Positions 6,148 through 64,000 of a DNA stretch of 64,000 bases are shown here, one piece after another. The notes beneath the pieces were generated by a model. That model was not told where the DNA came from. It was given only the letters and a program-made list of their open reading frames with translations, and made no database searches. Source of the stretch: a virus; UHGV virus genome UHGV-0149901, one strand, 5' to 3'. How positions within the stretch are numbered: the first letter of the stretch is position 1; each line of letters opens with the position of its first letter. Made by a program: the position numbers and the translations under genes.

Positions 6148-6222
6148 GATGGTGTAGCTCAGCGGTAGAGCAGTTGGCTGTTAACCAACTGGTCGGTGGT
6201 TCGAATCCACCCACCATCGCCA
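6148..6222 (+). tRNA. tRNA-Asn (GTT)
   Basis: Cloverleaf by hand: acceptor GATGGTG/CACCATC, anticodon loop CTGTTAA, T-loop TTCGAAT, CCA end. Confidence 0.8.
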
Positions 6223-6227
6223 ATTTA

Positions 6228-6314
6228 GGGGAGTTAGTCCGTAGGGGCAGCGGGGTAGACTGTAAATCTACTGTCATTGCGACTCGGGTGGTTCGACTCC
6301 ATCACTCCCCACCA
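6228..6314 (+). tRNA. tRNA-Tyr (GTA), long variable arm
   Basis: Acceptor GGGGAGT/ACTCCCC, anticodon loop CTGTAAA, T-loop TTCGACT, CCA end. Confidence 0.75.
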
Positions 6315-6318
6315 AATT

Positions 6319-6394
6319 GCCGGTTTAGCTCAGCTGGTAGAGCGCCTGCCTTGTAAGCAGGATGTCAGCGGTTCGAGTCCGCTAACCGGCACCA
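6319..6394 (+). tRNA. tRNA-Thr (TGT)
   Basis: Acceptor GCCGGTT/AACCGGC, anticodon loop CTTGTAA, T-loop TTCGAGT, CCA end. Confidence 0.8.
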
Positions 6395-6618
6395 ATACAA
6401 CGATAAGATCATTACGGTTAATCGTCGTTCATGTGCACAATGACTGGTCGAAAGGTAGTGATCTTACCGTTGTGGTGGATTCGCAGACTGATGCGATAGC
6501 TTTCTTGGATGTTAGGGAAATGCGGCCGCAAATCTTCCCTTTCGCGAGCGGTGATCGTCCGTAGTCCTAATTGGCTGCACCGTATGCCGGAGATTCAGTA
6601 CCGGCCACCACAACGGCC

Positions 6619-6705
6619 GGAGAGTAGGGAGCATGGTGCTCAAGCGGTCTTGAAAACCGTCCCATTGCGCAAGCGATGATGGTTCGATTCCATTACTCTC
6701 CGCCA
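6619..6705 (+). tRNA. tRNA-Ser (TGA), long variable arm
   Basis: Acceptor GGAGAGT/ACTCTCC, anticodon loop CTTGAAA, T-loop TTCGATT, CCA end. Confidence 0.7.
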
Positions 6706-6883: not shown

Positions 6884-7792
6884 TTAATGATTGCCTAGAT
6901 ATGATTTTAGTTCTTCTTTAATGATTAGTGAGTATTCTAAAATATCACTTAGTAAAAATTTTGCTCTGTTAAAATACCCACCAAAAGAACCTAAAATTTC
7001 AGATGGTCTTTCTAAGAGCATCACAATATCATCTTCTTGCACTTTAGTAATGTAACTTCTAACAGCTCTTTCTCCAATAACTCTTTTCTTACCGTTTATT
7101 TCAGATTCATCTAAAACCTTATTTATAAATTTTTCTGTATCATTGAATCGTCCACTATTGTGTACTATTGTATGTCTTAGTAGTTCAATTAGCTTGATGT
7201 TAAAGCGATAGTTTTTGCCAATCTTGTTGTTTGTTTCTATCTCTTTGAAGCCAGGTATTTTATTTCTGAAAATTTTAGTTATTTTTTTCGATGGGTTACT
7301 TTTTGCTTTTAATAATCTGTAATAAACTTCCCTTTTCCCAATTTCATCATCTTCAACCTTACCAAAATCACTTGAGGACCATAAATCATTTCGAACACAT
7401 ACAGTATAGACATATATTGCCTCAATATAGTCTTCCAGTAACTCATAGGCTTCAGTAATAACCCACTGATATTGTTTATTTTTCAAAGTATTACACAATC
7501 TTATCTTTTCTTCTAAATCAATGGCGCTGTTACCTATCTCTAATGTTGAACCTGTATATGGGTTTGAACATAAATGGCGAGCTAACGTTGTGCCACACTT
7601 AATCTTAATAGTTTCATTAATATTAATAATAGTATCTGGATTCTGTGCATACTCCACTTCTTTAAGAAGACGTTTTATATTTTTCTTTGTTGTATCATTT
7701 ATCTGATTTAAATAGTCAAAAAGTAAAGATATTTCTTCTCTAAATTCGTTGTATTTATTTTCAATCAAAGAATCAGACAACTTACCAATCAT
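6884..7792 (-). CDS. Hypothetical protein, AT-rich reverse-strand gene
   Basis: 302 aa ORF, markedly AT-rich relative to flanks, opposite strand to neighbours; contains R-x4-H (RHTIVH) HEPN-like motif (weak). Confidence 0.6.
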   Translation of the reverse strand: MIGKLSDSLIENKYNEFREEISLLFDYLNQINDTTKKNIKRLLKEVEYAQNPDTIININETIKIKCGTTLARHLCSNPYTGSTLEIGNSAIDLEEKIRLCNTLKNKQYQWVITEAYELLEDYIEAIYVYTVCVRNDLWSSSDFGKVEDDEIGKREVYYRLLKAKSNPSKKITKIFRNKIPGFKEIETNNKIGKNYRFNIKLIELLRHTIVHNSGRFNDTEKFINKVLDESEINGKKRVIGERAVRSYITKVQEDDIVMLLERPSEILGSFGGYFNRAKFLLSDILEYSLIIKEELKSYLGNH

Positions 7793-7965
7793 TAAAACCT
7801 CTATAAAATGTACATTTCAAGGCAATCCTTACTGTAATCTATTGTCGTAATCACTTCAATTGTTTACTAGTTAACCAATAAGTTACTACATACTTATCAA
7901 AAAAATCTGTTTGTAGTATAGTCTGATATGTTCGAATCAATATTTATAAAGGTATTTGTTAAGTT

Positions 7966-10993: not shown

Positions 10994-11244
10994 GGTTACA
11001 ACCTTTGCGCGTTCAATTCTCTCTGGTAAGTGCTTACCGATATTACATCAAAGGTTAGGGTTGTAAAGCTATTATCATTTTTTTCGATAGGCACTTAAAA
11101 GACCGGTTAAAGGCCATTGCACGGAGAAAAATTAGCCCAAAACAGGTAAGAAAATCAACTTGCATATGATATGAATGTATTCAGTATTGATATAAATTTT
11201 AGTAGTATTCCTTACCATAGTATAAGTTAGAATGGATTGATTGA

Positions 11245-11457
11245 ATGAACACCACTATTTCCAGCCTAATCGCTCTTGAGATCGGACACGTACAGAAATT
11301 AGCTGATGAGTGTGTAGCTGACATCCTCACCGATCTACCGAATGAGCAGATTCAGGTTGGTGTGAATGACACAACTGGCTTTATATTCGAACTTAACAAC
11401 AAACGCTTCACGCTTCTCAATACCGGCTCCGGGTCTTTAGCCGTCAGAATCTGTTAA
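11245..11457 (+). CDS. Hypothetical small protein
   Basis: 70 aa ORF divergent from XRE regulator. Confidence 0.35.
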   Translation: MNTTISSLIALEIGHVQKLADECVADILTDLPNEQIQVGVNDTTGFIFELNNKRFTLLNTGSGSLAVRIC

Positions 11458-11555
11458 CCCCTCTTCTCCCTGCGCGAATGGCTTAGTTCCCTGTTCGCGC
11501 AGTGCTACATTAAACACACTAGTAAATAATTTGTTTTCATAACAAAGGATTAGCC

Positions 11556-13664
11556 ATGTCTAAAAAACGTTCCATCAAAGAGGTTCAGGACTTCCGTGAC
11601 AGTGTAAAACGAGTAGTCGCTCTCCTTTCAGGTAAAAACATCCCTGTTGCAGAACGAGGGGACGACGCTTATGTACGCTATAACGATGATGGAGAGCCAA
11701 TTCTCGTAAACATCCCATCAATCCCGGATAACGCAACACCGGCATTGATGAATGCTGTGCGCGGATTTCTCGATCATGAGGTTGCTCACATTTTGTTTAC
11801 CGATATTCGTGTGTCCAACAAAATGAGAGAAAAAGGACGCGTTCCTTCCTGGTCGCTATGGAATGCCTTAGAAGACGTGTTCATCGAGCGAAAAATGGGT
11901 CAGGTCTTTAACGGAACAAGACGTAATCTGATGGCAACTCAGCGCCTTATAATCGAAAAAGTCTTTAAACCAAAGGCTTCAGAGGCTATTGCTTATTGTG
12001 GCAAAGATCAGCGCGCGCTTTTTCTAAACTTCTTTCTCTGTCCGGTTGTAAGAGCCTGGGATGGCCAAGCACCGTTCGTAGATTTCATGGATGAATATTG
12101 GCCTGTCATTGAGAAACCAATTTCATTATTAAAAGAACATGGTATCGATGTGGCCGTGCGTAACATGTCTTGCACCGAGGATTGTGTAAAGGTGGCTGCG
12201 ACCATAGCTAAGATTCTCAAAGACACTGAAAGTGAAAGCAAAGGTAAGGAGTCAGCTCCGGGAAAAACTTCCGATCCTTCAGACGCTGACCAGACGGATG
12301 CCTCTGGAGAAAACAATGAAGACAACGAAGATCATGAGACACTCTCAGTGTTAGATAATCACAAATCTATCAAATCAGAATCACATAGTAAGTACAAACA
12401 TTATAATAACGACAGTGATGATTCAGATAATTCTGAATCATCAGAAACAATATTCGATGATACAGAAAATGATAAAGAGGTATCAGATTCTGATGCTTCT
12501 GATAACGCGGCGTCAGAATCATTAACCGCTGACCACGAAAAAAGAAAAACGACAGAAGACGGCTCTTCAGATATCCCAACTCCGTCAAAAATGAGTCTGG
12601 AAGAGGCTTTAGAGGAGCTGGATAGCATAGAAGATGAAGTCGGAGGCATGACAGAAGATGCTCTATCCGAAACGATTAAAAGCGAGTTAACAGAAAGCTC
12701 GAAAAGCGAATACAGGCCATACAATCGCTCATACGACTTCATCGGCTCGATTGATCAGGCAGAAGCCCATATCAAACGGCTTATTAAAACATTCTCCGAT
12801 ATTGATTTAGGTGGATATCCAATCAGCCGTTATCGCATCGTTCCTGAAGGCAACCAACTCTTCGACAAATATATTGAAAAGCACCTTTCGTCAGGTGTTT
12901 CGTCGACGCTGGCAAAAGACCTGGAACGTGCAATAGCAAGCAGAAACAGAGTTCAGTTTATACCTGGCCAGCGTCGGGGGCGCATTCATGGTTCAAGTAT
13001 CTACAGATTAACAATGAATGATGATCGCGTGTTTCGTAAAAAAGAAGAATCTAAAGCCGTTAACGCCTGTGTTCAACAAGTGATTGATTTATCGGGTTCA
13101 ATGAGTGGCGAAACGATAAAACTAGCTCTTGCAAGTGCATATACCATCGCCGATGCACTTGATCGAATAAATGTTCCCAACATTATCACCGGCTTCACTA
13201 CATTTGGTAGTCATATGGCGGCAGGAGAACTTAAGGCTGTCAAGTATGAGTTCTCTCGCTTTGAATCTTTAATGCTACCTATCATCAAAAATTGGAATGA
13301 AAAGGTAAATTCTCGCGAAGTTCGCTCACGTATGGGGTGCGTAGGCTACACATTCCCACTTCTTAATAACGTGGATGGTGAAAGCATAGCCAGCCTTGCA
13401 TCGTTATTTTCCGGTCGCATGGAGGACAGGAAGATCATGCTTGTTCTGAGTGATGGCGCGCCGTGGGCTGTTGGGAGAGGTTTTGACGCTCATTTGCGTT
13501 CAGTTGCGAAGCAAATTGAAACGCAGACTGATATTGATTTGATGGCAATTGGCATCATGACTGACGCACCGGAGAGATTTTACTCAAATCATGCCCTGGT
13601 AACGAGCGTTGATAGTCTTGGTTCATCTGTAGTTACTGAACTATCTCGTATCATTTTAAAGTGA
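11556..13664 (+). CDS. CobT-like VWA-domain protein
   Basis: C-terminal MIDAS motif DLSGSMSG; long acidic Ser/Asp/Glu-rich central tract; 702 aa. Confidence 0.75.
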   Translation: MSKKRSIKEVQDFRDSVKRVVALLSGKNIPVAERGDDAYVRYNDDGEPILVNIPSIPDNATPALMNAVRGFLDHEVAHILFTDIRVSNKMREKGRVPSWSLWNALEDVFIERKMGQVFNGTRRNLMATQRLIIEKVFKPKASEAIAYCGKDQRALFLNFFLCPVVRAWDGQAPFVDFMDEYWPVIEKPISLLKEHGIDVAVRNMSCTEDCVKVAATIAKILKDTESESKGKESAPGKTSDPSDADQTDASGENNEDNEDHETLSVLDNHKSIKSESHSKYKHYNNDSDDSDNSESSETIFDDTENDKEVSDSDASDNAASESLTADHEKRKTTEDGSSDIPTPSKMSLEEALEELDSIEDEVGGMTEDALSETIKSELTESSKSEYRPYNRSYDFIGSIDQAEAHIKRLIKTFSDIDLGGYPISRYRIVPEGNQLFDKYIEKHLSSGVSSTLAKDLERAIASRNRVQFIPGQRRGRIHGSSIYRLTMNDDRVFRKKEESKAVNACVQQVIDLSGSMSGETIKLALASAYTIADALDRINVPNIITGFTTFGSHMAAGELKAVKYEFSRFESLMLPIIKNWNEKVNSREVRSRMGCVGYTFPLLNNVDGESIASLASLFSGRMEDRKIMLVLSDGAPWAVGRGFDAHLRSVAKQIETQTDIDLMAIGIMTDAPERFYSNHALVTSVDSLGSSVVTELSRIILK

Positions 13665-26689: not shown

Positions 26690-27221
26690 ACCGCTGACAG
26701 CATACACAATCAACTACCGCTGATAGCATATCGAGAGTTTATCTCACCGCTCACAGCATACTTTACTCGATTTTTTACCGCTGACAGCATACTTAAGACA
26801 TTGCATGAATAATGTGTACCGGTATGGGTATAACCAGAACAAAATTACCGCTGGCAGCATACGAAGGTCTGACATATACCATTAATTACCGCTGATAGCA
26901 TATCCAAACAAAAATTCCTCAATAAAACACCGCTGACAGCATACGTTCTATCAGGGAGCAGCAGGCAATAAATGCTTTTCACTACAAGCAATCAGCGCAA
27001 CGGCAATAGAATGTTAGTGAGCGCAAACCTATATGGAATGCACTCTTCGAGGTTAGTAACCACTGGGGAGGTATGCCAGAGCATTGAGTGGTGATAGATG
27101 ATTTACCGCTCACAGCATACGTTTATCTCACTATACCGCTGGTAGCATATCTTTAACCGTTCACAGCATACTTTTCAGAAAAATAGCCGCTGATAGCATA
27201 CATTTCACCGCTGACAGCATA
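26690..27221 (+). repeat. Iteron array (12 copies of ACCGCTGACAGCATAC-type 15-16-mer), incA-like
   Basis: Copies at 26690, 26716, 26746, 26777, 26847, 26888, 26929, 27105, 27135, 27156, 27186, 27207; same orientation, irregular spacing; abuts repA 3' end. Confidence 0.8.
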
Positions 27222-28316
27222 TCAAAGCAGTTTGAGACTATTGGAAAGGATCTCAATCATCTTGATATTTTCAGGCGTCAAATTCTGCGAAAGTTCGGTT
27301 ATCTTGTTGATAATGTTCTGTTTGGCATCAATTTCCCCAGCTTTCTCATCTGGTTTTTTGGGTTCGATGTCTTCAGGTTTTGGCGGTGCGACTTTGAGTT
27401 TTGGATTGCGGCTGTGAATCTGGATATAGATCGACCGCCCTCGCTTAATCTCGCTGTATTCGAGATAACCCAAATCTTGGAGAGCTTTTAAGCCGTTACG
27501 TATAGTCTGATTCTGCGAGCTGACATTCCTGCTACTCAAATTGAGTCGCGCACGCAATCGAGCAAGCGATACCGGCGCAGGCTTGGTTGGAAGACTTTCG
27601 ATGAAGGTGTACAGAGCCTGTGCTGTTTCTTTGCGTGGTAGCTTATTGATAACCTTTAACTGCAAAAGAACCTTATGGTCAAAGCGATATAGTTCGGCCA
27701 GCTTCGGTTCTGCATAGAACACCACCGTATCTTTCTGCTCGTTGTAGTCCACGCTATTGATGAGGTGCACCATCAGAAGCGAGATCTTGTTAGAGCCGTC
27801 TACATTCTTTTCTTCATACGTTCTCTGGAAAGACAGAGTTGTACGCATGATCTTCAAAAGACTGTTTGTAAGCCGGTCGCGGAGTGTTTTGCGGATCTGT
27901 GACGATGGATAGCCACAAAACTTCGCAAATTTCGTGATGCTTAACTCGACACGACCGTTAGGTTCGCCATATTCTGCCAGCGAACGCACAACGCCCACCC
28001 ACGTTTTGAAATCATGATCCATGTCGAGACGAGGACCGGTTATCTTGATATCGGAATAGCCTTCAGAACGGGCTACTTCGAGCTGAACAAGCTCCTTTGA
28101 AGCATCGATCTCATTTGGCTTGTTACGCTTGCTGTATTTTGTCCCCTTGAGCGTGGGCACGAACAACCCCAGCCGCATCAACGCAATTGGTTGGACTGTA
28201 TTGTTGCTATTAGGGACAAGTTCCCCTGTGTACAATTCAAGGGAACCTTCTTCAAAGTTGTCGAGATTATCTTCTACTTCTTTGTTATTTTTACCTTTTT
28301 TATTTTTTGTGGACAT
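27222..28316 (-). CDS. repA: Iteron-binding replication initiator RepA-like protein (start trimmed to MSTKNKK)
   Basis: Flanked both sides by iterons; basic N-terminus; longer track ORF overlaps upstream iterons so internal start chosen. Confidence 0.65.
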   Translation of the reverse strand: MSTKNKKGKNNKEVEDNLDNFEEGSLELYTGELVPNSNNTVQPIALMRLGLFVPTLKGTKYSKRNKPNEIDASKELVQLEVARSEGYSDIKITGPRLDMDHDFKTWVGVVRSLAEYGEPNGRVELSITKFAKFCGYPSSQIRKTLRDRLTNSLLKIMRTTLSFQRTYEEKNVDGSNKISLLMVHLINSVDYNEQKDTVVFYAEPKLAELYRFDHKVLLQLKVINKLPRKETAQALYTFIESLPTKPAPVSLARLRARLNLSSRNVSSQNQTIRNGLKALQDLGYLEYSEIKRGRSIYIQIHSRNPKLKVAPPKPEDIEPKKPDEKAGEIDAKQNIINKITELSQNLTPENIKMIEILSNSLKLL

Positions 28317-28336
28317 GTGGACACCTTTGTCATTCA

Positions 28337-28438
28337 ACCGCTGACAGCATACTTGATTTGCCGCTGGCAGCATACCAAAAACAGTTGGCAGCATACGGCG
28401 AACCGTTGACAGACTATCAATTACCGCTGGTAGCATAC
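28337..28438 (+). repeat. Iteron array (about 5 copies) upstream of repA, origin-proximal
   Basis: ACCGCTGACAGCATAC, GCCGCTGGCAGCATAC, partial and degenerate copies, ACCGCTGGTAGCATAC. Confidence 0.75.
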
Positions 28439-59185: not shown

Positions 59186-59342
59186 CCCGTCTCCTTTATT
59201 TTAATTTGCGCAATTGTCGCCTTGTAGTGTACTCCAGCTACGACATTTAATCATTTATGAGAAATGCTGTTATCACATGGCAGACATAAGGCCATTTTGT
59301 TACTATCAAGCCCCTTTTCACTACAAAGAAGTAATGCCTACT

Positions 59343-61376
59343 ATGACCCAAGTCGCGAAGAAAATTCTGGTGACGTGCGCGCTGCCGTACGCTAACGGCT
59401 CAATCCACCTCGGCCATATGCTGGAGCACATCCAGGCTGATGTCTGGGTTCGTTACCAGCGAATGCGCGGCCACGAGGTTAATTTCATCTGTGCCGACGA
59501 TGCCCACGGTACGCCGATCATGCTGAAAGCACAGCAGCTTGGTATCACACCGGAACAGATGATTGGCGAAATGAGTCAGGAACACCAGACTGATTTTGCA
59601 GGCTTTAACATCAGCTATGACAACTATCACTCGACGCACAGCGAAGAGAACCGTCAGTTGTCCGAGCTTATCTATACTCGCCTGAAAGAGAACGGTTTTA
59701 TTAAAAACCGCACCATCTCTCAGCTGTACGATCCGGAAAAAGGCATGTTCCTGCCGGACCGTTTTGTGAAAGGCACCTGCCCGAAATGTAAAGCACCGGA
59801 TCAATACGGCGATAACTGTGAAGTCTGCGGCGCTACTTACAGCCCGACTGAACTGATCGAGCCGAAATCGGTAGTTTCTGGTGCTACGCCGGTAATGCGT
59901 GATTCCGAACACTTCTTCTTTGATCTGCCTTCTTTCAGCGAAATGTTGCAGGCATGGACCCGCAGCGGTGCGTTGCAGGAGCAGGTGGCAAACAAAATGC
60001 AGGAGTGGTTTGAATCTGGCCTGCAACAGTGGGATATCTCCCGCGATGCGCCGTACTTCGGTTTTGAAATTCCGAACGCACCGGGCAAATATTTCTACGT
60101 CTGGCTGGACGCGCCGATTGGCTACATGGGTTCCTTCAAGAATCTGTGCGACAAACGCGGCGACACTACCAGCTTCGACGAATACTGGAAGAAAGACTCC
60201 ACCGCCGAGCTGTACCACTTCATCGGTAAAGATATTGTTTACTTCCACAGCCTGTTCTGGCCTGCCATGCTGGAAGGCAGCAACTTCCGCAAGCCGACCA
60301 ACCTGTTTGTTCATGGCTATGTGACGGTGAACGGCGCAAAGATGTCCAAGTCTCGCGGCACCTTTATTAAAGCCAGCACCTGGCTGAATCATTTTGACGC
60401 TGACAGCCTGCGTTACTACTACACTGCGAAACTCTCTTCGCGCATTGATGATATCGATCTCAACCTGGAGGATTTCGTTCAGCGCGTGAATGCCGATATC
60501 GTGAACAAAGTGGTTAACCTGGCCTCCCGTAATGCAGGCTTTATCAACAAGCGTTTTGACGGCGTGCTGGCAAGCGAACTGGCTGACCCGCAACTGTACA
60601 AAACCTTTACTGATGCTGCTGAAGTGATTGGTGAAGCATGGGAAAGCCGCGAATTTGGTAAAGCGATTCGTGAAATCATGGCGCTGGCTGATCTGGCTAA
60701 CCGCTATGTCGATGAACAGGCTCCGTGGGTGGTGGCGAAGCAGGAAGGGCGCGATGCCGATCTGCAGGCGATTTGCTCTATGGGCATTAACCTGTTCCGC
60801 GTGCTGATGACGTACCTGAAACCGGTACTGCCGAAACTGACTGAACGTGCAGAAGCATTCCTGAATACAGAACTGACCTGGGATGGTATCCAGCAACCGC
60901 TGCTGGGCCATAAAGTGAATCCGTTCAAGGCACTGTATAACCGCATCGACATGAAGCAGGTTGAAGCACTGGTGGAAGCATCCAAAGAGGAAGTAAAAGC
61001 CGCTGCCGCGCCAGTAACTGGCCCACTGGCAGATGATCCGATTCAGGAAACCATCACCTTTGACGACTTCGCCAAAGTTGACCTGCGCGTGGCTCTGATT
61101 GAAAACGCGGAGTTTGTCGAAGGTTCTGACAAACTGCTTCGCCTGACGCTGGATCTCGGTGGCGAAAAACGTAATGTCTTCTCCGGCATTCGTTCCGCTT
61201 ATCCAGATCCACAGGCACTGATTGGTCGTCACACCATTATGGTGGCCAACCTGGCTCCGCGTAAAATGCGCTTCGGTATCTCCGAAGGCATGGTGATGGC
61301 TGCTGGCCCCGGCGGGAAAGATATCTTCCTGTTAAGCCCGGATGCTGGTGCTAAACCAGGCCACCAGGTTAAGTAA
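59343..61376 (+). CDS. metG: Methionyl-tRNA synthetase
   Basis: 677 aa from [28 protein letters not shown] (HIGH motif), KMSKS motif, zinc knuckles; track ORF start 59214 is an upstream in-frame extension. Confidence 0.95.
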
Positions 61377-61873: not shown

Positions 61874-62059
61874 ATGCTTAAAGAAGACTCATATCTACTA
61901 AAGGCGCTTGAAATGCGTGGCGTTGAACCTACAGTGAAAAACGCCCACGATATCTACCTTCAGTTTTCACCGGAGCTGAAACGGCTCATAAATCAATACG
62001 GGGTTAATGACTCAAGTGTTAAAGCGATGATAGATGATGAATTAGACCATCTCATCTAA
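61874..62059 (+). CDS. Hypothetical small protein
   Basis: 61 aa ORF. Confidence 0.35.
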   Translation: MLKEDSYLLKALEMRGVEPTVKNAHDIYLQFSPELKRLINQYGVNDSSVKAMIDDELDHLI

Positions 62060-62211
62060 TCGTTATCCTATGATAATGGTTTCACTTTGAGATTGTCATT
62101 TTTCATAGCCAAAGCTGATGTTTGTGGAAGGTGGATTGATAAACGGATGCGTATTTAGGTTATACAAGTGAGAAAATTGATAATATATAAAAGCGATTTT
62201 TATGTGATGGA

Positions 62212-62781
62212 ATGGATGTGATGGAAACCCAGAACCAACAAACAAAACCTCTGAATAACATTTATGCGTGGATTCTAGCGTTCATGCCTTTCTTCTTTGG
62301 AGTATTGCCGGAAGAGTATACCAATTACGCTATTATAATTGGGGGTGTAACTACCATCGGTTTGTTAGTAGCTGACAGAATGGCTCTATCGGAGTCTGGC
62401 TGTGAACCACCTTCAATTCTATGGGGGGTATTCCTCCTGCCTGTCTATCTCTGGAAGCGCGCGACTATTACAAAAGGCAGCAGAGTGCCATTTATCATAA
62501 TCGTTGCGTCGCTGGCTTGGATTATCTTCATCGGCATCCCACACAAGGACGAGGTTGCTCTTGAAGAAGCAGCCTGCCCTCTCGTGACAACTATTCTGAA
62601 AGAGAATAACGGTTCGACTGCACCAAAATGTATGAAGGTGACAATAGAGGACAAGGTGACGGATAAGTTCTATAGAGCAACGGCTACACTAGACAATGGT
62701 AATGACATTAACATTACTCTGGAACTTACCGGTGACAGGAACTTCTACGTCCGTGTTCCAAATGTTTATCTGAACAACTAA
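62212..62781 (+). CDS. Membrane protein
   Basis: 189 aa, three to four predicted TM helices. Confidence 0.5.
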   Translation: MDVMETQNQQTKPLNNIYAWILAFMPFFFGVLPEEYTNYAIIIGGVTTIGLLVADRMALSESGCEPPSILWGVFLLPVYLWKRATITKGSRVPFIIIVASLAWIIFIGIPHKDEVALEEAACPLVTTILKENNGSTAPKCMKVTIEDKVTDKFYRATATLDNGNDINITLELTGDRNFYVRVPNVYLNN

Positions 62782-62899
62782 CGGTTGCAACTTATTGATA
62801 ATGGCGGTCACAATTTGATTCTTTTCTATAAGAATCCGTTGATCGCCACTACTCCCCTTCCATACCTGCAATCACACCCTTAAATATCAATAGGTTATG

Positions 62900-63650
62900 G
62901 TTGTTTATACAAATAAGAAAACAACTAAATAACAGATCAACGAAACGTCAACGCTTTCACCCGATTTGGTCTAAAAAATTGACGTTTTCACACATCACTT
63001 CTTATACCCGTAACTCTACGCAGCAGACAGCGCCACAGCGTCCAATTTTCACCACAGACGACCCAACACACTACCAACAAAAACACACGCTCAAAATCGC
63101 TCCCGTTGCGTTACACAACCATATAAACAACTTATTTTCAGGCATAACAAAACAACTAAATAACACACATGCCATTCCCAAAAACAACCAACCTCTTTAT
63201 GGCAGGCTACCGAAAAGACCCACCTCTTCTCCCCAGGCTACCGGACAACCAACCTAACTTTCACAGGCAATCCGAAAACATTCATACGCGCGATACCCAC
63301 GACACGCCATTACCCAAACAGCGAAGAAACACCTGAACCGCTGAAACCCCAACGAAGCCTGTAACCGCAAGGTTTCTCTCAATCCCAAAAGACACGAAAC
63401 ATAACAATCACGGGAAACGCCATTACCCAATACACGAATAACTACAAAAGCCTTTCACACACTCCAGACAAACAACTCAAACACAATAACGAAAGCAATC
63501 GCTCACCTGCCATTACTCCATACACGGAGAAGAACAATCACCAAAACGACGAGAACACCCCATAGAAGAACCACCGCAAAACGAACGAAACCACATACAC
63601 CGACAGAGAAAACAACACACCCAATTCACCAACAGAAATAGTCGCCGTAT
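62900..63650. repeat. Strongly strand-skewed A+C-rich low-complexity region
   Basis: Top strand almost devoid of G over about 750 bp. Confidence 0.6.
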
Positions 63651-63840
63651 AGGACATTCTGGAAGGAGTGAGCATTAACGCCTATAGAGAGGTTGAGACA
63701 GATAAAACACAACATGTATAGCGAAGAAGCCAGGTATGTATAAGTGGGGATGGAAGGAGGGGTGTCGCCTCCTTTTTCGTATTTATTCAACTCCTGATTT
63801 TATCCCCCGTAACACCCCTACGGTCAGCCTTCGGTCCATA

Positions 63841-63980
63841 CAGGGGAAAGGCTGCATCCCGCTACAGAAACGGCTGGGTTGCCTTTGGGAACGGCTGGAG
63901 GTTTTCAGGGAAACGGTCGAGTTGCCTGTGTGGATTTCGGGAAAAGGCTCAATGCCGGTTCAGGAACGGCGGCGTACCGG
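63841..63980. repeat. Array of degenerate direct repeats (GGGAAACGGCNG-type, 21-31 bp period)
   Basis: At least six units; truncated by window end. Confidence 0.5.
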
Positions 63981-64000
63981 TATAGCGAGAGGGAGAGTTG

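Follow-up and report, generated by a model that had tools for sequence, protein, structure and literature searches.

What is the role of a stretch of DNA whose top strand is as rich in A and C, and as poor in G and T, as positions 62900-63650 of the viral genome UHGV-0149901? The sequence analysed here, called the window, is one strand of 64,000 nucleotides (nt), read 5' to 3', and it belongs to an Escherichia coli phage-plasmid of the SSU5/pHCM2 type; the tract and its flanks are 97-99% identical to those of E. coli members of this family. A sequence-only reading had noticed the tract, judged the single open reading frame (ORF) across it to be probably spurious, and proposed a strand-specific replication or packaging feature, a G-less structured RNA or a protein-binding array. 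Our analysis points, tentatively, to a zone of Rho-dependent transcription termination, which would serve as an 'insulator' between variable cargo genes and the backbone of the element.

On the + strand, the base fractions at 62900-63650 are A 0.397, C 0.318, G 0.123 and T 0.162, and in 200-nt windows the GC skew was -0.38 to -0.58 and the AT skew +0.29 to +0.59. The best 750-nt window (start 62907) has an A+C fraction of 0.721, about 7.6 standard deviations (sd) above the window-wide mean of 0.501 (sd 0.029), while the next best non-overlapping one reaches only 0.579. When regions with an excess of C over G (C>G 'bubbles') were scanned with a 78-nt measure, the tract was the largest bubble of the window on either strand (window starts 62765-63616), comprising 852 window positions with an area of 15,854 %xbp, twice that of the runner-up. 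The median C/G ratio was 2.44 in the tract versus 0.91 elsewhere in the window. The composition, skew and bubble scans confirm that this strand-skewed, A+C-rich tract is unlike the rest of the window. Its end at ~63650 also holds, but the start at 62900 had been placed too late, since the strong skew is unbroken from ~62845, right after a conserved stem-loop, to ~63650, with a purine-rich stretch and a hairpin beyond. The description as almost free of G was overstated (G = 12%). The region with the second-lowest G content (11.5%), at window ~7050-7800, is plain AT-rich with 41% T and is not comparable to the tract; it probably encodes a minus-strand gene of foreign origin.

Does the tract encode a protein? 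The ORF of 118 amino acids (aa) spans 62901-63257, and no ORF over the tract is conserved across the relatives, in which position, frame and even strand differ between lineages. The substitutions in the tract lack 3-nt periodicity (z from -1.3 to +1.5, versus 15.8 for three neighbouring genes), and the insertions and deletions among lineages are out of frame. Because no ORF is conserved and the substitutions show no codon periodicity, the tract is judged from this comparison to be non-coding. The suspicion that the 118-aa ORF is spurious was thereby borne out, and the comparison with relatives revealed no conserved, translated low-complexity domain. Some depositors have annotated hypothetical proteins here, on the + strand in PhiR41_1 and Cyrano and on the - strand in SSU5 and one Klebsiella plasmid, and long ORFs arise easily in A/C-rich DNA, which has few stop codons. 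However, PGAP leaves the tract unannotated in the RefSeq E. coli genomes sampled, and the corresponding Cyrano gene, CYRAN_103, has zero RNA-seq reads in LB. With the unstable frames added, a low-complexity protein rich in Thr, Pro, Asn, Gln, His and Lys, whether from the 118-aa ORF or from a longer frame, is extremely improbable.

The predicted RNA structure was then compared between the two strands. The + strand RNA of 63010-63650 has a minimum free energy (MFE) of -0.12 kcal/mol/nt, which is 4.8 sd weaker than that of 41 other 640-nt windows (-0.28 +/- 0.033), and its mean unpaired probability is 0.70 versus 0.40 +/- 0.03. The minus-strand RNA of the tract folds ordinarily (-0.25 kcal/mol/nt), and therefore the unusual property of the tract, as modelled, is a + strand free of structure; the proposal of a G-less structured RNA does not agree with this prediction. 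No globally conserved RNA fold was detected across the tract, the covariation term of RNAalifold being only -0.7 kcal/mol, and the pairings that hold are local hairpins and one short long-range helix. In this helix, CTTAYAC/GTRTAAG (helix B), the variable pairs in 14 lineages are UA:11/CG:2/UG:1 and CG:12/UA:1/other:1; 94.6% of the cells are paired, versus 20-52% with the partner slid out of register, and covariation as strong as that observed arose in only 4 of 500 shuffles. With so short a helix, the evidence that its covariation is real is suggestive but modest. The wobble pairs of helix B and of both hairpins exist on the + strand only. The stem-loop block at 62802-62848 is near-invariant in 11 lineages, with -28 kcal/mol within a 124-nt context, and three deep lineages have altered yet complementary stems (GTCAACCTCTC/GAGAGGTTGAT; AGATCAACTTAC/GTGAGTTGATCT, with one U.G pair) around the same TCTATAAG loop. 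At the other end, 63752-63790 forms a 9-10 bp stem followed by TTTTTCGTATTTATT, and thus has the hairpin and U run of an intrinsic terminator. This hairpin, with one purine and one pyrimidine arm, is kept in 11 lineages (97% of cells paired, many by G.U), but its covariation is not significant, as shuffles give 95.7% paired; the U tract behind it is good in the E. coli lineage but less so in the SSU5 group.

Two further pairings were considered and set aside: one between the first and second conserved blocks (TATAAGAR/YTCTTATA), which has one covarying pair but is lost in the deep lineage L097, and a closing stem that would pair the C-rich 5' end with the G-rich 3' end, which appears in the MFE structure of the window (z -4.1) but is of low complexity and not conserved in the deep lineage L099. 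Searching the window with Rfam 15 returned only tRNAs, located elsewhere, and nothing at gathering score in the tract; a permissive Rfam search of 62000-64000 gave only chance-level hits (E >= 0.6). GGA motifs of the CsrA type and ACA motifs of the MazF type are not enriched in the tract, and antisense targets elsewhere in the element are not enriched either (42 k-mer hits versus 32 +/- 6 by chance).

How could a long, C-rich and unfolded sequence act downstream of genes? The tract lies exactly where variable cargo meets the conserved backbone. Almost every PhiR41_1 gene from the replication/DNA-metabolism region through the cargo region is on the + strand, and on this strand G exceeds C everywhere but in the tract. 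The genes upstream of the tract vary among relatives; they are nearly always + strand genes, and in most relatives they stop 10-30 nt short of the stem-loop; in the window, the upstream cargo ORF stops at 62781. All ORFs up- and downstream of the tract fall in families of unknown function (Pfam, PHROGs). In E. coli, Rho-dependent 3' ends consist of a gene stop, a stable stem-loop without a U tract, and a C-rich region (Dar & Sorek 2018; PMC6061677), and the layout at 62781-62900 matches this arrangement. The terminator scan gave no intrinsic terminator for the stretch that separates the upstream ORF from the tract. Every template with a bubble of >78 bp or >700 %xbp that was tested by Nadiras et al. 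2018 (PMC6144790) terminated Rho-dependently, and the bubble of the tract exceeds that size threshold more than 20-fold. The tract has three characteristics of a Rho utilization (rut) site: a C>G bubble on the non-template strand that passes the ~80-nt threshold without a break, a transcript that is structure-poor (by prediction only), and an untranslated segment. The segment at 62849-62900 is most likely, to judge from its sequence, the first to load Rho, and the equivalent segment of relatives is even more C-rich (CCACTTTCCCCACCCCTCCAACC).

Published RNA-seq data are consistent with termination at this place. Phage Cyrano, resident in E. coli LF82, is 96.9% identical to the window over the tract, and values for it, as log2 of (fragments per kilobase per million, fpkm, +5), are available for five conditions in duplicate (10 samples; PMC9928086 S1 Table). 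The upstream ORF CYRAN_102 has 45-587 fpkm, and CYRAN_103, which equals window 62901-63257, is at 0 fpkm in each of the two LB replicates and never above 14 fpkm across the 10 samples; the drop between the two is up to ~270-fold within 110 nt. The downstream operon, from CYRAN_105 onwards, is expressed independently (PMC9928086). An invariant extended -10-like sequence, TGCGATAAT, lies within the invariant TCTTATTGCGATAATAACACCAACA; in every lineage, the deep ones included, it precedes the first downstream gene by ~60 nt, and it is probably the promoter of the backbone operon. In a natural variant, L083 (~11100-11990), the loss of 215 nt from the start of the module has removed both 5' hairpins and TTGACG..CTTATAC, and a different + strand ORF runs directly into its A/C-rich tract; this fusion fits Rho-dependent termination.

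From these observations, the following mechanism can be proposed. The tract would be the untranslated end, transcribed from the top strand, of a long array of genes that runs rightward (+ strand). On leaving the last cargo gene, RNA polymerase would transcribe the stable stem-loop without a U tract and then ~800 nt of RNA that has no conserved frame and is C-rich, G-poor and predicted to be near structure-free. A sequence mostly of A and C offers few start codons, no Shine-Dalgarno sequence and no pairing, and should therefore stay free of ribosomes. Rho would load on the naked RNA and release the polymerase, and exonucleases would trim the transcript back to the stem-loop, which would become the stable 3' end of the cargo mRNA. 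The hairpin and U tail at 63752-63790 would catch any escaping polymerase as a backstop, so that the downstream operon of small genes would be driven only by its own promoter, whatever cargo lies upstream. That Rho rather than decay causes the RNA collapse, and that insulation is the selected function, is what we infer.

How widespread is the module, and what in it is conserved? Near-identical relatives are the phages PhiR41_1, CMS-2020a and Cyrano and many ~110-kb IncFIB plasmids. In PLSDB, 839 plasmids carry the tract, from Klebsiella, Escherichia, Enterobacter, Salmonella, Citrobacter, Cronobacter and Shigella, and a backbone gene 3 kb downstream of it was found in 804, with near-identical counts per genus. 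Among 5,426 complete E. coli genomes, 243 (4.5%) have the tract, which was plasmid-borne every time and chromosomal never. Pattern scans of viral and genome collections for remoter homologues returned the same Enterobacteriaceae family and chance matches only, and literature and database searches found no annotation, Rfam family or paper that describes the module, nor any data set on Rho inhibition for an SSU5-type element. The sequence of the tract is 70% identical between the window and SSU5, versus 34-41% for the 4-fold degenerate sites of the three nearest downstream genes, and 230 of the 593 ungapped columns are invariant across seven lineages; by these comparisons the tract is under purifying selection. 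All relatives have an A+C fraction of 0.63-0.72 in their tracts. The variable columns are still A+C-rich (A 0.325, C 0.322, G 0.194, T 0.159), the A+C fraction is 0.76 at invariant versus 0.65 at variable columns, and exchanges of A to C and C to A make up 24-29% of long-range differences. Since the A+C richness is present at variable columns and stronger at invariant ones, the column data argue for selection, and not mutation bias, as what holds the composition.

Deep lineages, namely three plasmids of K. oxytoca / K. pneumoniae whose backbone protein is 31-33% identical to that of the window, were reached through a search with this protein, not through pattern scans with the tract. Each has an unannotated gap of 1.2-1.6 kb at the same place. 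The gap contains, in order, a stem-loop that presents TCTATAAG on different but compensating stems; another hairpin and, behind it, TTGAC(N), 17 nt and TTAYAC; an A/C-rich stretch of ~650 nt (A 0.40-0.41, C 0.29-0.34, G 0.15-0.18, T 0.10-0.13), whose predicted folding reaches no more than -0.11 to -0.16 kcal/mol/nt; a purine-rich stretch of ~180 nt; and GTGTAAG, a hairpin and AAATTCAAG. In L099, A+C rises to 0.82 in 150-nt windows, and the last 180 nt are A 0.43, G 0.42, C 0.09 and T 0.06. Outside these landmarks, the deep-lineage tracts are no nearer to the window than shuffled sequence is, a statement for which alone the global pairwise identities were used, as their gap settings were too permissive (shuffles ~0.74). 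The motif GCCAT(T/C)NC(C/T) is present in 2-5 copies in every lineage, including the deep ones, versus 0.01-0.04 expected from shuffles. Because they are kept in tracts otherwise like shuffled sequence, the conserved characters are the composition, the lack of structure, the end structures and this motif. The composition itself seems to be selected, as it is kept both where the sequence is otherwise randomised and at variable columns.

These data also bear on the possibility that the skew was written by mutation. A G+U-rich minus-strand RNA held in a persistent R-loop on the C-rich top strand, priming replication as in ColE1 or T4 oriF, or a footprint left by mutation on a bottom strand that is chronically single-stranded, as in mitochondrial DNA, might produce it. 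The signs of the skew (top A+C, bottom G+T) are those produced by deamination of an exposed bottom strand, and over 750 nt the GC skew of the bottom strand is +0.44, far in excess of the values that predict R-loops. The element encodes RNase HI, and the 62942-62989 hairpin, read on the minus strand, is followed by a U-rich run. However, the greater skew of the invariant columns is the opposite of what a purely mutational origin would give, and the G clusters that initiate R-loops are absent: the top strand has 12 C runs versus 16 +/- 3 in shuffles, and neither C runs nor G-quadruplex (G4) or R-loop clusters are enriched in the tract. The minus-strand RNA folds ordinarily, the wobble hairpins belong to the + strand only, and the scan found no convincing minus-strand promoter. 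We regard this origin of the skew as very improbable.

The conservation weighs against Rho-dependent termination as the whole explanation. A Rho site needs ~80 nt, and the 650-800 nt under purifying selection here, about 10 times the length of a normal site, far exceed what insulation requires, for which a simple intrinsic terminator would do. The GCCAT(T/C)ACC and ACCNACC...CAGGC repeats and the covarying helix survive at 33% protein identity, whereas Rho terminators are normally not conserved. Chains of four YC dimers at 9-13 nt spacing occur at 4.7/kb in the tract versus 7.1/kb elsewhere, chains of six dimers are absent, and most C residues of the tract follow A. The selection seen on the 3' hairpin implies occasional + strand RNA that extends to the far end. 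The Cyrano data are from lysogenic cells and cover the first half of the tract; they show low RNA, which decay or a silent internal promoter would give as well as termination. The Rho model leaves the length, the deeply conserved motifs, the 31-nt repeats of variable copy number and the bracketing helix unexplained, and these features point to an additional sequence-specific partner, for example a regulator of read-through in lytic growth. Because the length, the YC chains, the conserved motifs and helix and the selection on the 3' hairpin are not accounted for, our confidence in Rho-dependent termination is kept somewhat below an even level.

Could the RNA itself be the functional product? 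A non-coding RNA of ~0.75-1.0 kb, free of structure and made mainly in lytic growth, might display single-stranded motifs to a specific partner as a sponge or scaffold; it would have an A/C-rich and then an A/G-rich domain, protective hairpins that bracket them, and a short covarying closing helix, and a phage or host RNA-binding protein or small RNAs are candidate partners. The purifying selection on primary sequence is in agreement with such an RNA, as are the same-sense motifs of all lineages and the spacers between them, which stay unable to pair as the accessibility of the motifs would require. So are the 5' hairpins with compensating stems and + strand-only wobble pairs, the U.G intermediate in helix B, and the terminator-like hairpin at the 3' end. 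The poverty in U would remove most sites of RNase E. The hexamers and the spacer length of the promoter-like element at 62979-63008 are invariant while its spacer sequence varies, in the fashion of a promoter, and the deep lineages have TTGACA/TTGACT, 17 nt and TTACAC/TTATAC. Its function as a promoter is, however, doubtful from its sequence, because the -10-like element lacks the key final T; the hexamer also overlaps the 5' arm of helix B and cannot be both an untranscribed promoter and part of the RNA, and a scan for sigma-70 promoters found none on the + strand near the tract. Moreover, the + strand RNA is at or near zero in all 10 Cyrano lysogen samples, including the intramacrophage SOS-type conditions that raise neighbouring genes. 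The RNA matches no Rfam family, and its complementarity to the rest of the element is unenriched, as are GGA and ACA in the tract. On balance, we consider a lytic-phase RNA of this kind rather unlikely.

Should it nevertheless exist, the tract could conceivably specify a new phage RNA that is selected for its inability to fold, with ~650 nt of A/C, then 100-180 nt of A/G, hairpin caps and a covarying 7-bp helix. In the same, not very probable, case its 2-6 GCCAU(U/C)ACC and 2-4 ACCNACC..CAGGC copies might be permanently single-stranded landing sites. During lytic growth, this RNA would capture a single-strand-binding factor of host or phage (for example Rho, Hfq, an RNase or a small RNA) or act as a regulated gate for read-through into the early genes downstream.

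Alternatively, the tract may act as DNA, for instance as an array of sites to which a phage protein binds. Such an array might be a lytic origin, or a cis-replication region whose iterons share one sense, as in P4 ori/crr or P1 incA; it might serve regulation or looping, defined by the inverted CTTATAC/GTATAAG sites; or it might be a hotspot of recombination at the edge of the cargo. The region is large, conserved, non-coding and transcriptionally silent in lysogens. It has 4-6 copies of the GCCATTAC motif, tandem 31-mers of variable copy number, two copies of an A-rich 22-mer, CGTTGAY ~5 times and TATAAG 3 times in + - + orientation. The element encodes alpha and epsilon subunits of Pol III, a primase, a helicase and RNase HI, and its lytic origin is unassigned. 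In alignment A2, the loci L003 and L065 are mosaics whose tracts resemble the E. coli lineage in one part and the SSU5 lineage in another, which places recombination breakpoints inside the tract. Covarying inverted sites would also be expected from co-evolution with a binding protein. However, binding to double-stranded DNA gives no reason for skewed variable spacers or for one structure-free strand, and the stems compensate through G.U pairs that are present on one strand only. The motifs are unevenly spaced (135, 113 and 90 nt in the window; 41-142 nt in SSU5), and the orientation of the tract is constant in 74 loci. We therefore hold action as DNA to be unlikely. The sequence-only reading is partly supported: the tract is a real, strand-specific feature with a probable function, and with its repeated motifs it may be a binding array. 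An invertible switch of the fimS or Gin-Cin type was rejected, as all 74 loci have the same orientation and no inverted copies were found.

Plasmid replication and, probably, packaging are located elsewhere on the element. The iteron ACCGCTG(R)(Y)AGCATA occurs in 14 copies at window 26690-27221 and 28337-28437, and since these flank the expected position of repA, a RepFIB/P1-like plasmid origin is assigned by sequence to 26690-28437, ~35 kb from the tract. The matching repA flank of PhiR41_1 also carries GGATCTATC-type repeats. The RepA iterons (ACCGCTGACAGCATA) are unrelated to the motifs of the tract, and DnaA boxes are not enriched there (2 in 1.2 kb versus 1/kb window-wide). The cumulative skew of the whole element rises monotonically, with no inflection or turning point at the tract, which speaks against a replication origin or terminus there. 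The terminase genes, placed by position in an unlabelled annotation, are ~15 kb away. The plasmid-only derivative pMT1 of Yersinia pestis lacks the whole region and is still kept as a plasmid; in this locus (L096, 5647-7001) the backbone genes are present on both sides, and IS1541 replaces the missing ~30 kb, the tract included. Because pMT1 has lost the region, the tract is not needed for plasmid replication or partition, although this excludes a role in the plasmid mode only. With the RepA iterons elsewhere, DnaA boxes at background and the region dispensable in pMT1, an iteron-type plasmid origin at the tract was rejected, and the proposed replication or packaging feature was not supported; a separate lytic origin may still lie there.

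When compared with known systems, the tract appears to work most like a rut region, and with some reserve we would describe it as an outsized Rho-type termination region whose sequence is conserved. Like rut regions and C>G bubbles such as lambda tR1 and the sets of Nadiras 2018 and Dar & Sorek 2018, it is C-rich, G-poor, predicted to be unstructured, and untranslated; it comes right after a stable stem-loop without a U tract, it is the place where RNA collapses in vivo (Cyrano), and it follows a gene array and precedes an independently promoted operon. Unlike them, it is ~10 times longer, A is as abundant as C, and spaced YC chains are unenriched. Its sequence, motifs and bracketing helix are conserved across deep lineages, unlike those of ordinary Rho terminators.

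Known sponge RNAs include CsrB/CsrC with GGA motifs and Pseudomonas CrcZ, whose A-rich CA motifs titrate Hfq/Crc. The tract resembles them in being non-coding, with many same-sense motifs in predicted unpaired RNA and a terminator hairpin. It differs in that it is 2-3 times longer and has no Rfam hit, its GCCAUUACC and ACCNACC..CAGGC match no known binding consensus, and GGA is unenriched in its A/C domain. Sponge RNAs are abundant, whereas the tract has 0-14 fpkm in lysogens, and a sponge of this type was set aside for lysogenic cells. In the RNA immunity of P4, P1 and N15, short complementary sequences of an untranslated leader control premature, partly Rho-dependent termination. The tract shares with these systems a phage-plasmid untranslated region, covarying CTTAYAC/GTRTAAG boxes with a third TATAAG, and a transcription stop, and the boxes covary between heteroimmune-like lineages of its family. 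However, its boxes measure 7-8 nt and are separated by 730 nt, the tract is not known to give a processed small RNA, and no adjacent antirepressor or replication genes were identified there; the known systems are without a compositionally extreme spacer. The iteron arrays of P1 incA and P4 crr likewise have motif copies in one orientation in a non-coding region of a plasmid prophage. Unlike these, the tract is not beside an initiator gene, its spacing is irregular and its motifs are unrelated to the element's own RepA iterons, and its strand-specific composition and + strand-only pairing are needless for a double-stranded site.

Phage-plasmids of the SSU5/pHCM2 type are common among clinical Klebsiella, E. 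coli, Enterobacter and Salmonella and carry resistance and toxin cargo, and the ~1-kb module sits exactly at the border where cargo is inserted. If the module is a Rho insulator, it would explain how these elements tolerate strongly expressed, changing cargo without disturbing the backbone programme, and few natural examples of selection for 'no structure, no translation' would be as clear. If the conserved motifs recruit a specific partner, the module would represent a new type of phage regulatory RNA and offer a handle on the control of lysis and lysogeny in this family. The positions of its parts are collected in Table 1.

Table 1. Parts of the module and the putative downstream promoter; positions refer to the window unless a locus is named.
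Feature	Position	Strand	Sequence	Remark
Two-tier stem-loop	62802-62848	+		directly after upstream cargo ORF; no U tract follows
Outer stem	62802-62810 / 62840-62848	+	TGGCGGTCA pairs with TGATCGCCA	one G.U pair
Inner stem	62817-62823 / 62830-62836	+	GATTCTT pairs with AAGAATC	
Conserved loop sequence	62825-62832	+	TCTATAAG	across loop and inner 3' arm
C/U-rich start of skewed region	62849-62900	+	CACTACTCCCCTTCCATACCTGCAATCACACCC...	C>G bubble starts here
Second conserved block	62913-63008	+		column conservation 0.86-0.99
A-rich box	62913-62934	+	ATAAGAAAACAACTAAATAACA	
A-rich box, second copy	63144-63165	+	ATAACAAAACAACTAAATAACA	95% identical to the 62913-62934 copy
Hairpin	62942-62989	+	GAAACGTCAA (62942-62951), TTGACGTTTTC (62979-62989)	RNAalifold
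Promoter-like element	62979-62984 / 63001-63008	+	TTGACG, CTTATACC	16-nt spacer
Core A+C-rich, G+T-poor tract	63009-63650	+		RNA predicted almost structure-free
Three tandem 31-nt repeats	63182-63273	+	(A)ACCNACCTCTT-N6-CAGGCTACCG	
Motif GCCAT(T/C)NC(C/T), four same-sense copies	starts 63171, 63306, 63419, 63509 (span 63171-63537)	+	long form GCCATTACYCMATACACGGAGAAGAAC	
Tract motif copies			GCCATTACC	
Purine-rich 3' segment	63651-63737	+		several GGA motifs
Helix B, 3' arm	63738-63744	+	GTATAAG	complementary to CTTATAC 63001-63007; brackets whole tract
Terminator-like hairpin and U-rich tail	63752-63790	+	GGAAGGAGG / CCTCCTTTT	terminator scan; 3' boundary; intrinsic terminator 63752-63778
Invariant -10-like sequence (probable promoter)	L001 ~7470-7490 (~270-290 nt past window end)		TCTTATTGCGATAATAACACCAACA / TGCGATAAT	alignment A1 columns 2421-2445

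The second copy of the A-rich box is conserved in relatives and preceded by AAACAAGTTGTTTTCAGG. The 31-nt repeat has 2-4 copies among relatives (3 in the window, 4 in L013 and 2 in Klebsiella), and some carry an extra tandem copy (L013 2638-2698, L040 952-1012, L085 109-169). This variation in copy number shows, at the level of sequence comparison, ongoing slippage or unequal exchange. An equivalent repeat, CCACCCAA..CAAGGC, is present 3 times in L099. The purine-rich segment is extended to ~180 nt of A+G in the deep lineages.

Some observations were made outside the module. Just after the terminator, from window 63840-64000 onward (L001 7040-7180), there are 5-6 copies of the G-rich repeats TTTTCAGGGAAACGG / GGGAAAAGGC, and a second cluster of them lies 3.5 kb downstream (L001 10590-10690), so that the two clusters bracket the conserved operon of small genes; they may be binding sites of a regulator or structured RNA repeats. 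The cargo just upstream of the tract includes a full-length, E. coli-like methionyl-tRNA synthetase gene (metG, window 59214-61376), and upstream of it, as further cargo, a divergent gene that is a copy of mrp/apbC; SSU5 and pHCM2 have other genes in place of the metG/mrp cargo. Four tRNA genes, Asn-GTT, Tyr-GTA, Thr-TGT and Ser-TGA, are on the + strand at window 6148-6702. In the published LF82 transcriptome, CYRAN_43, annotated as a hypothetical protein and located outside the region, is 723-fold above the local background in lysogens.

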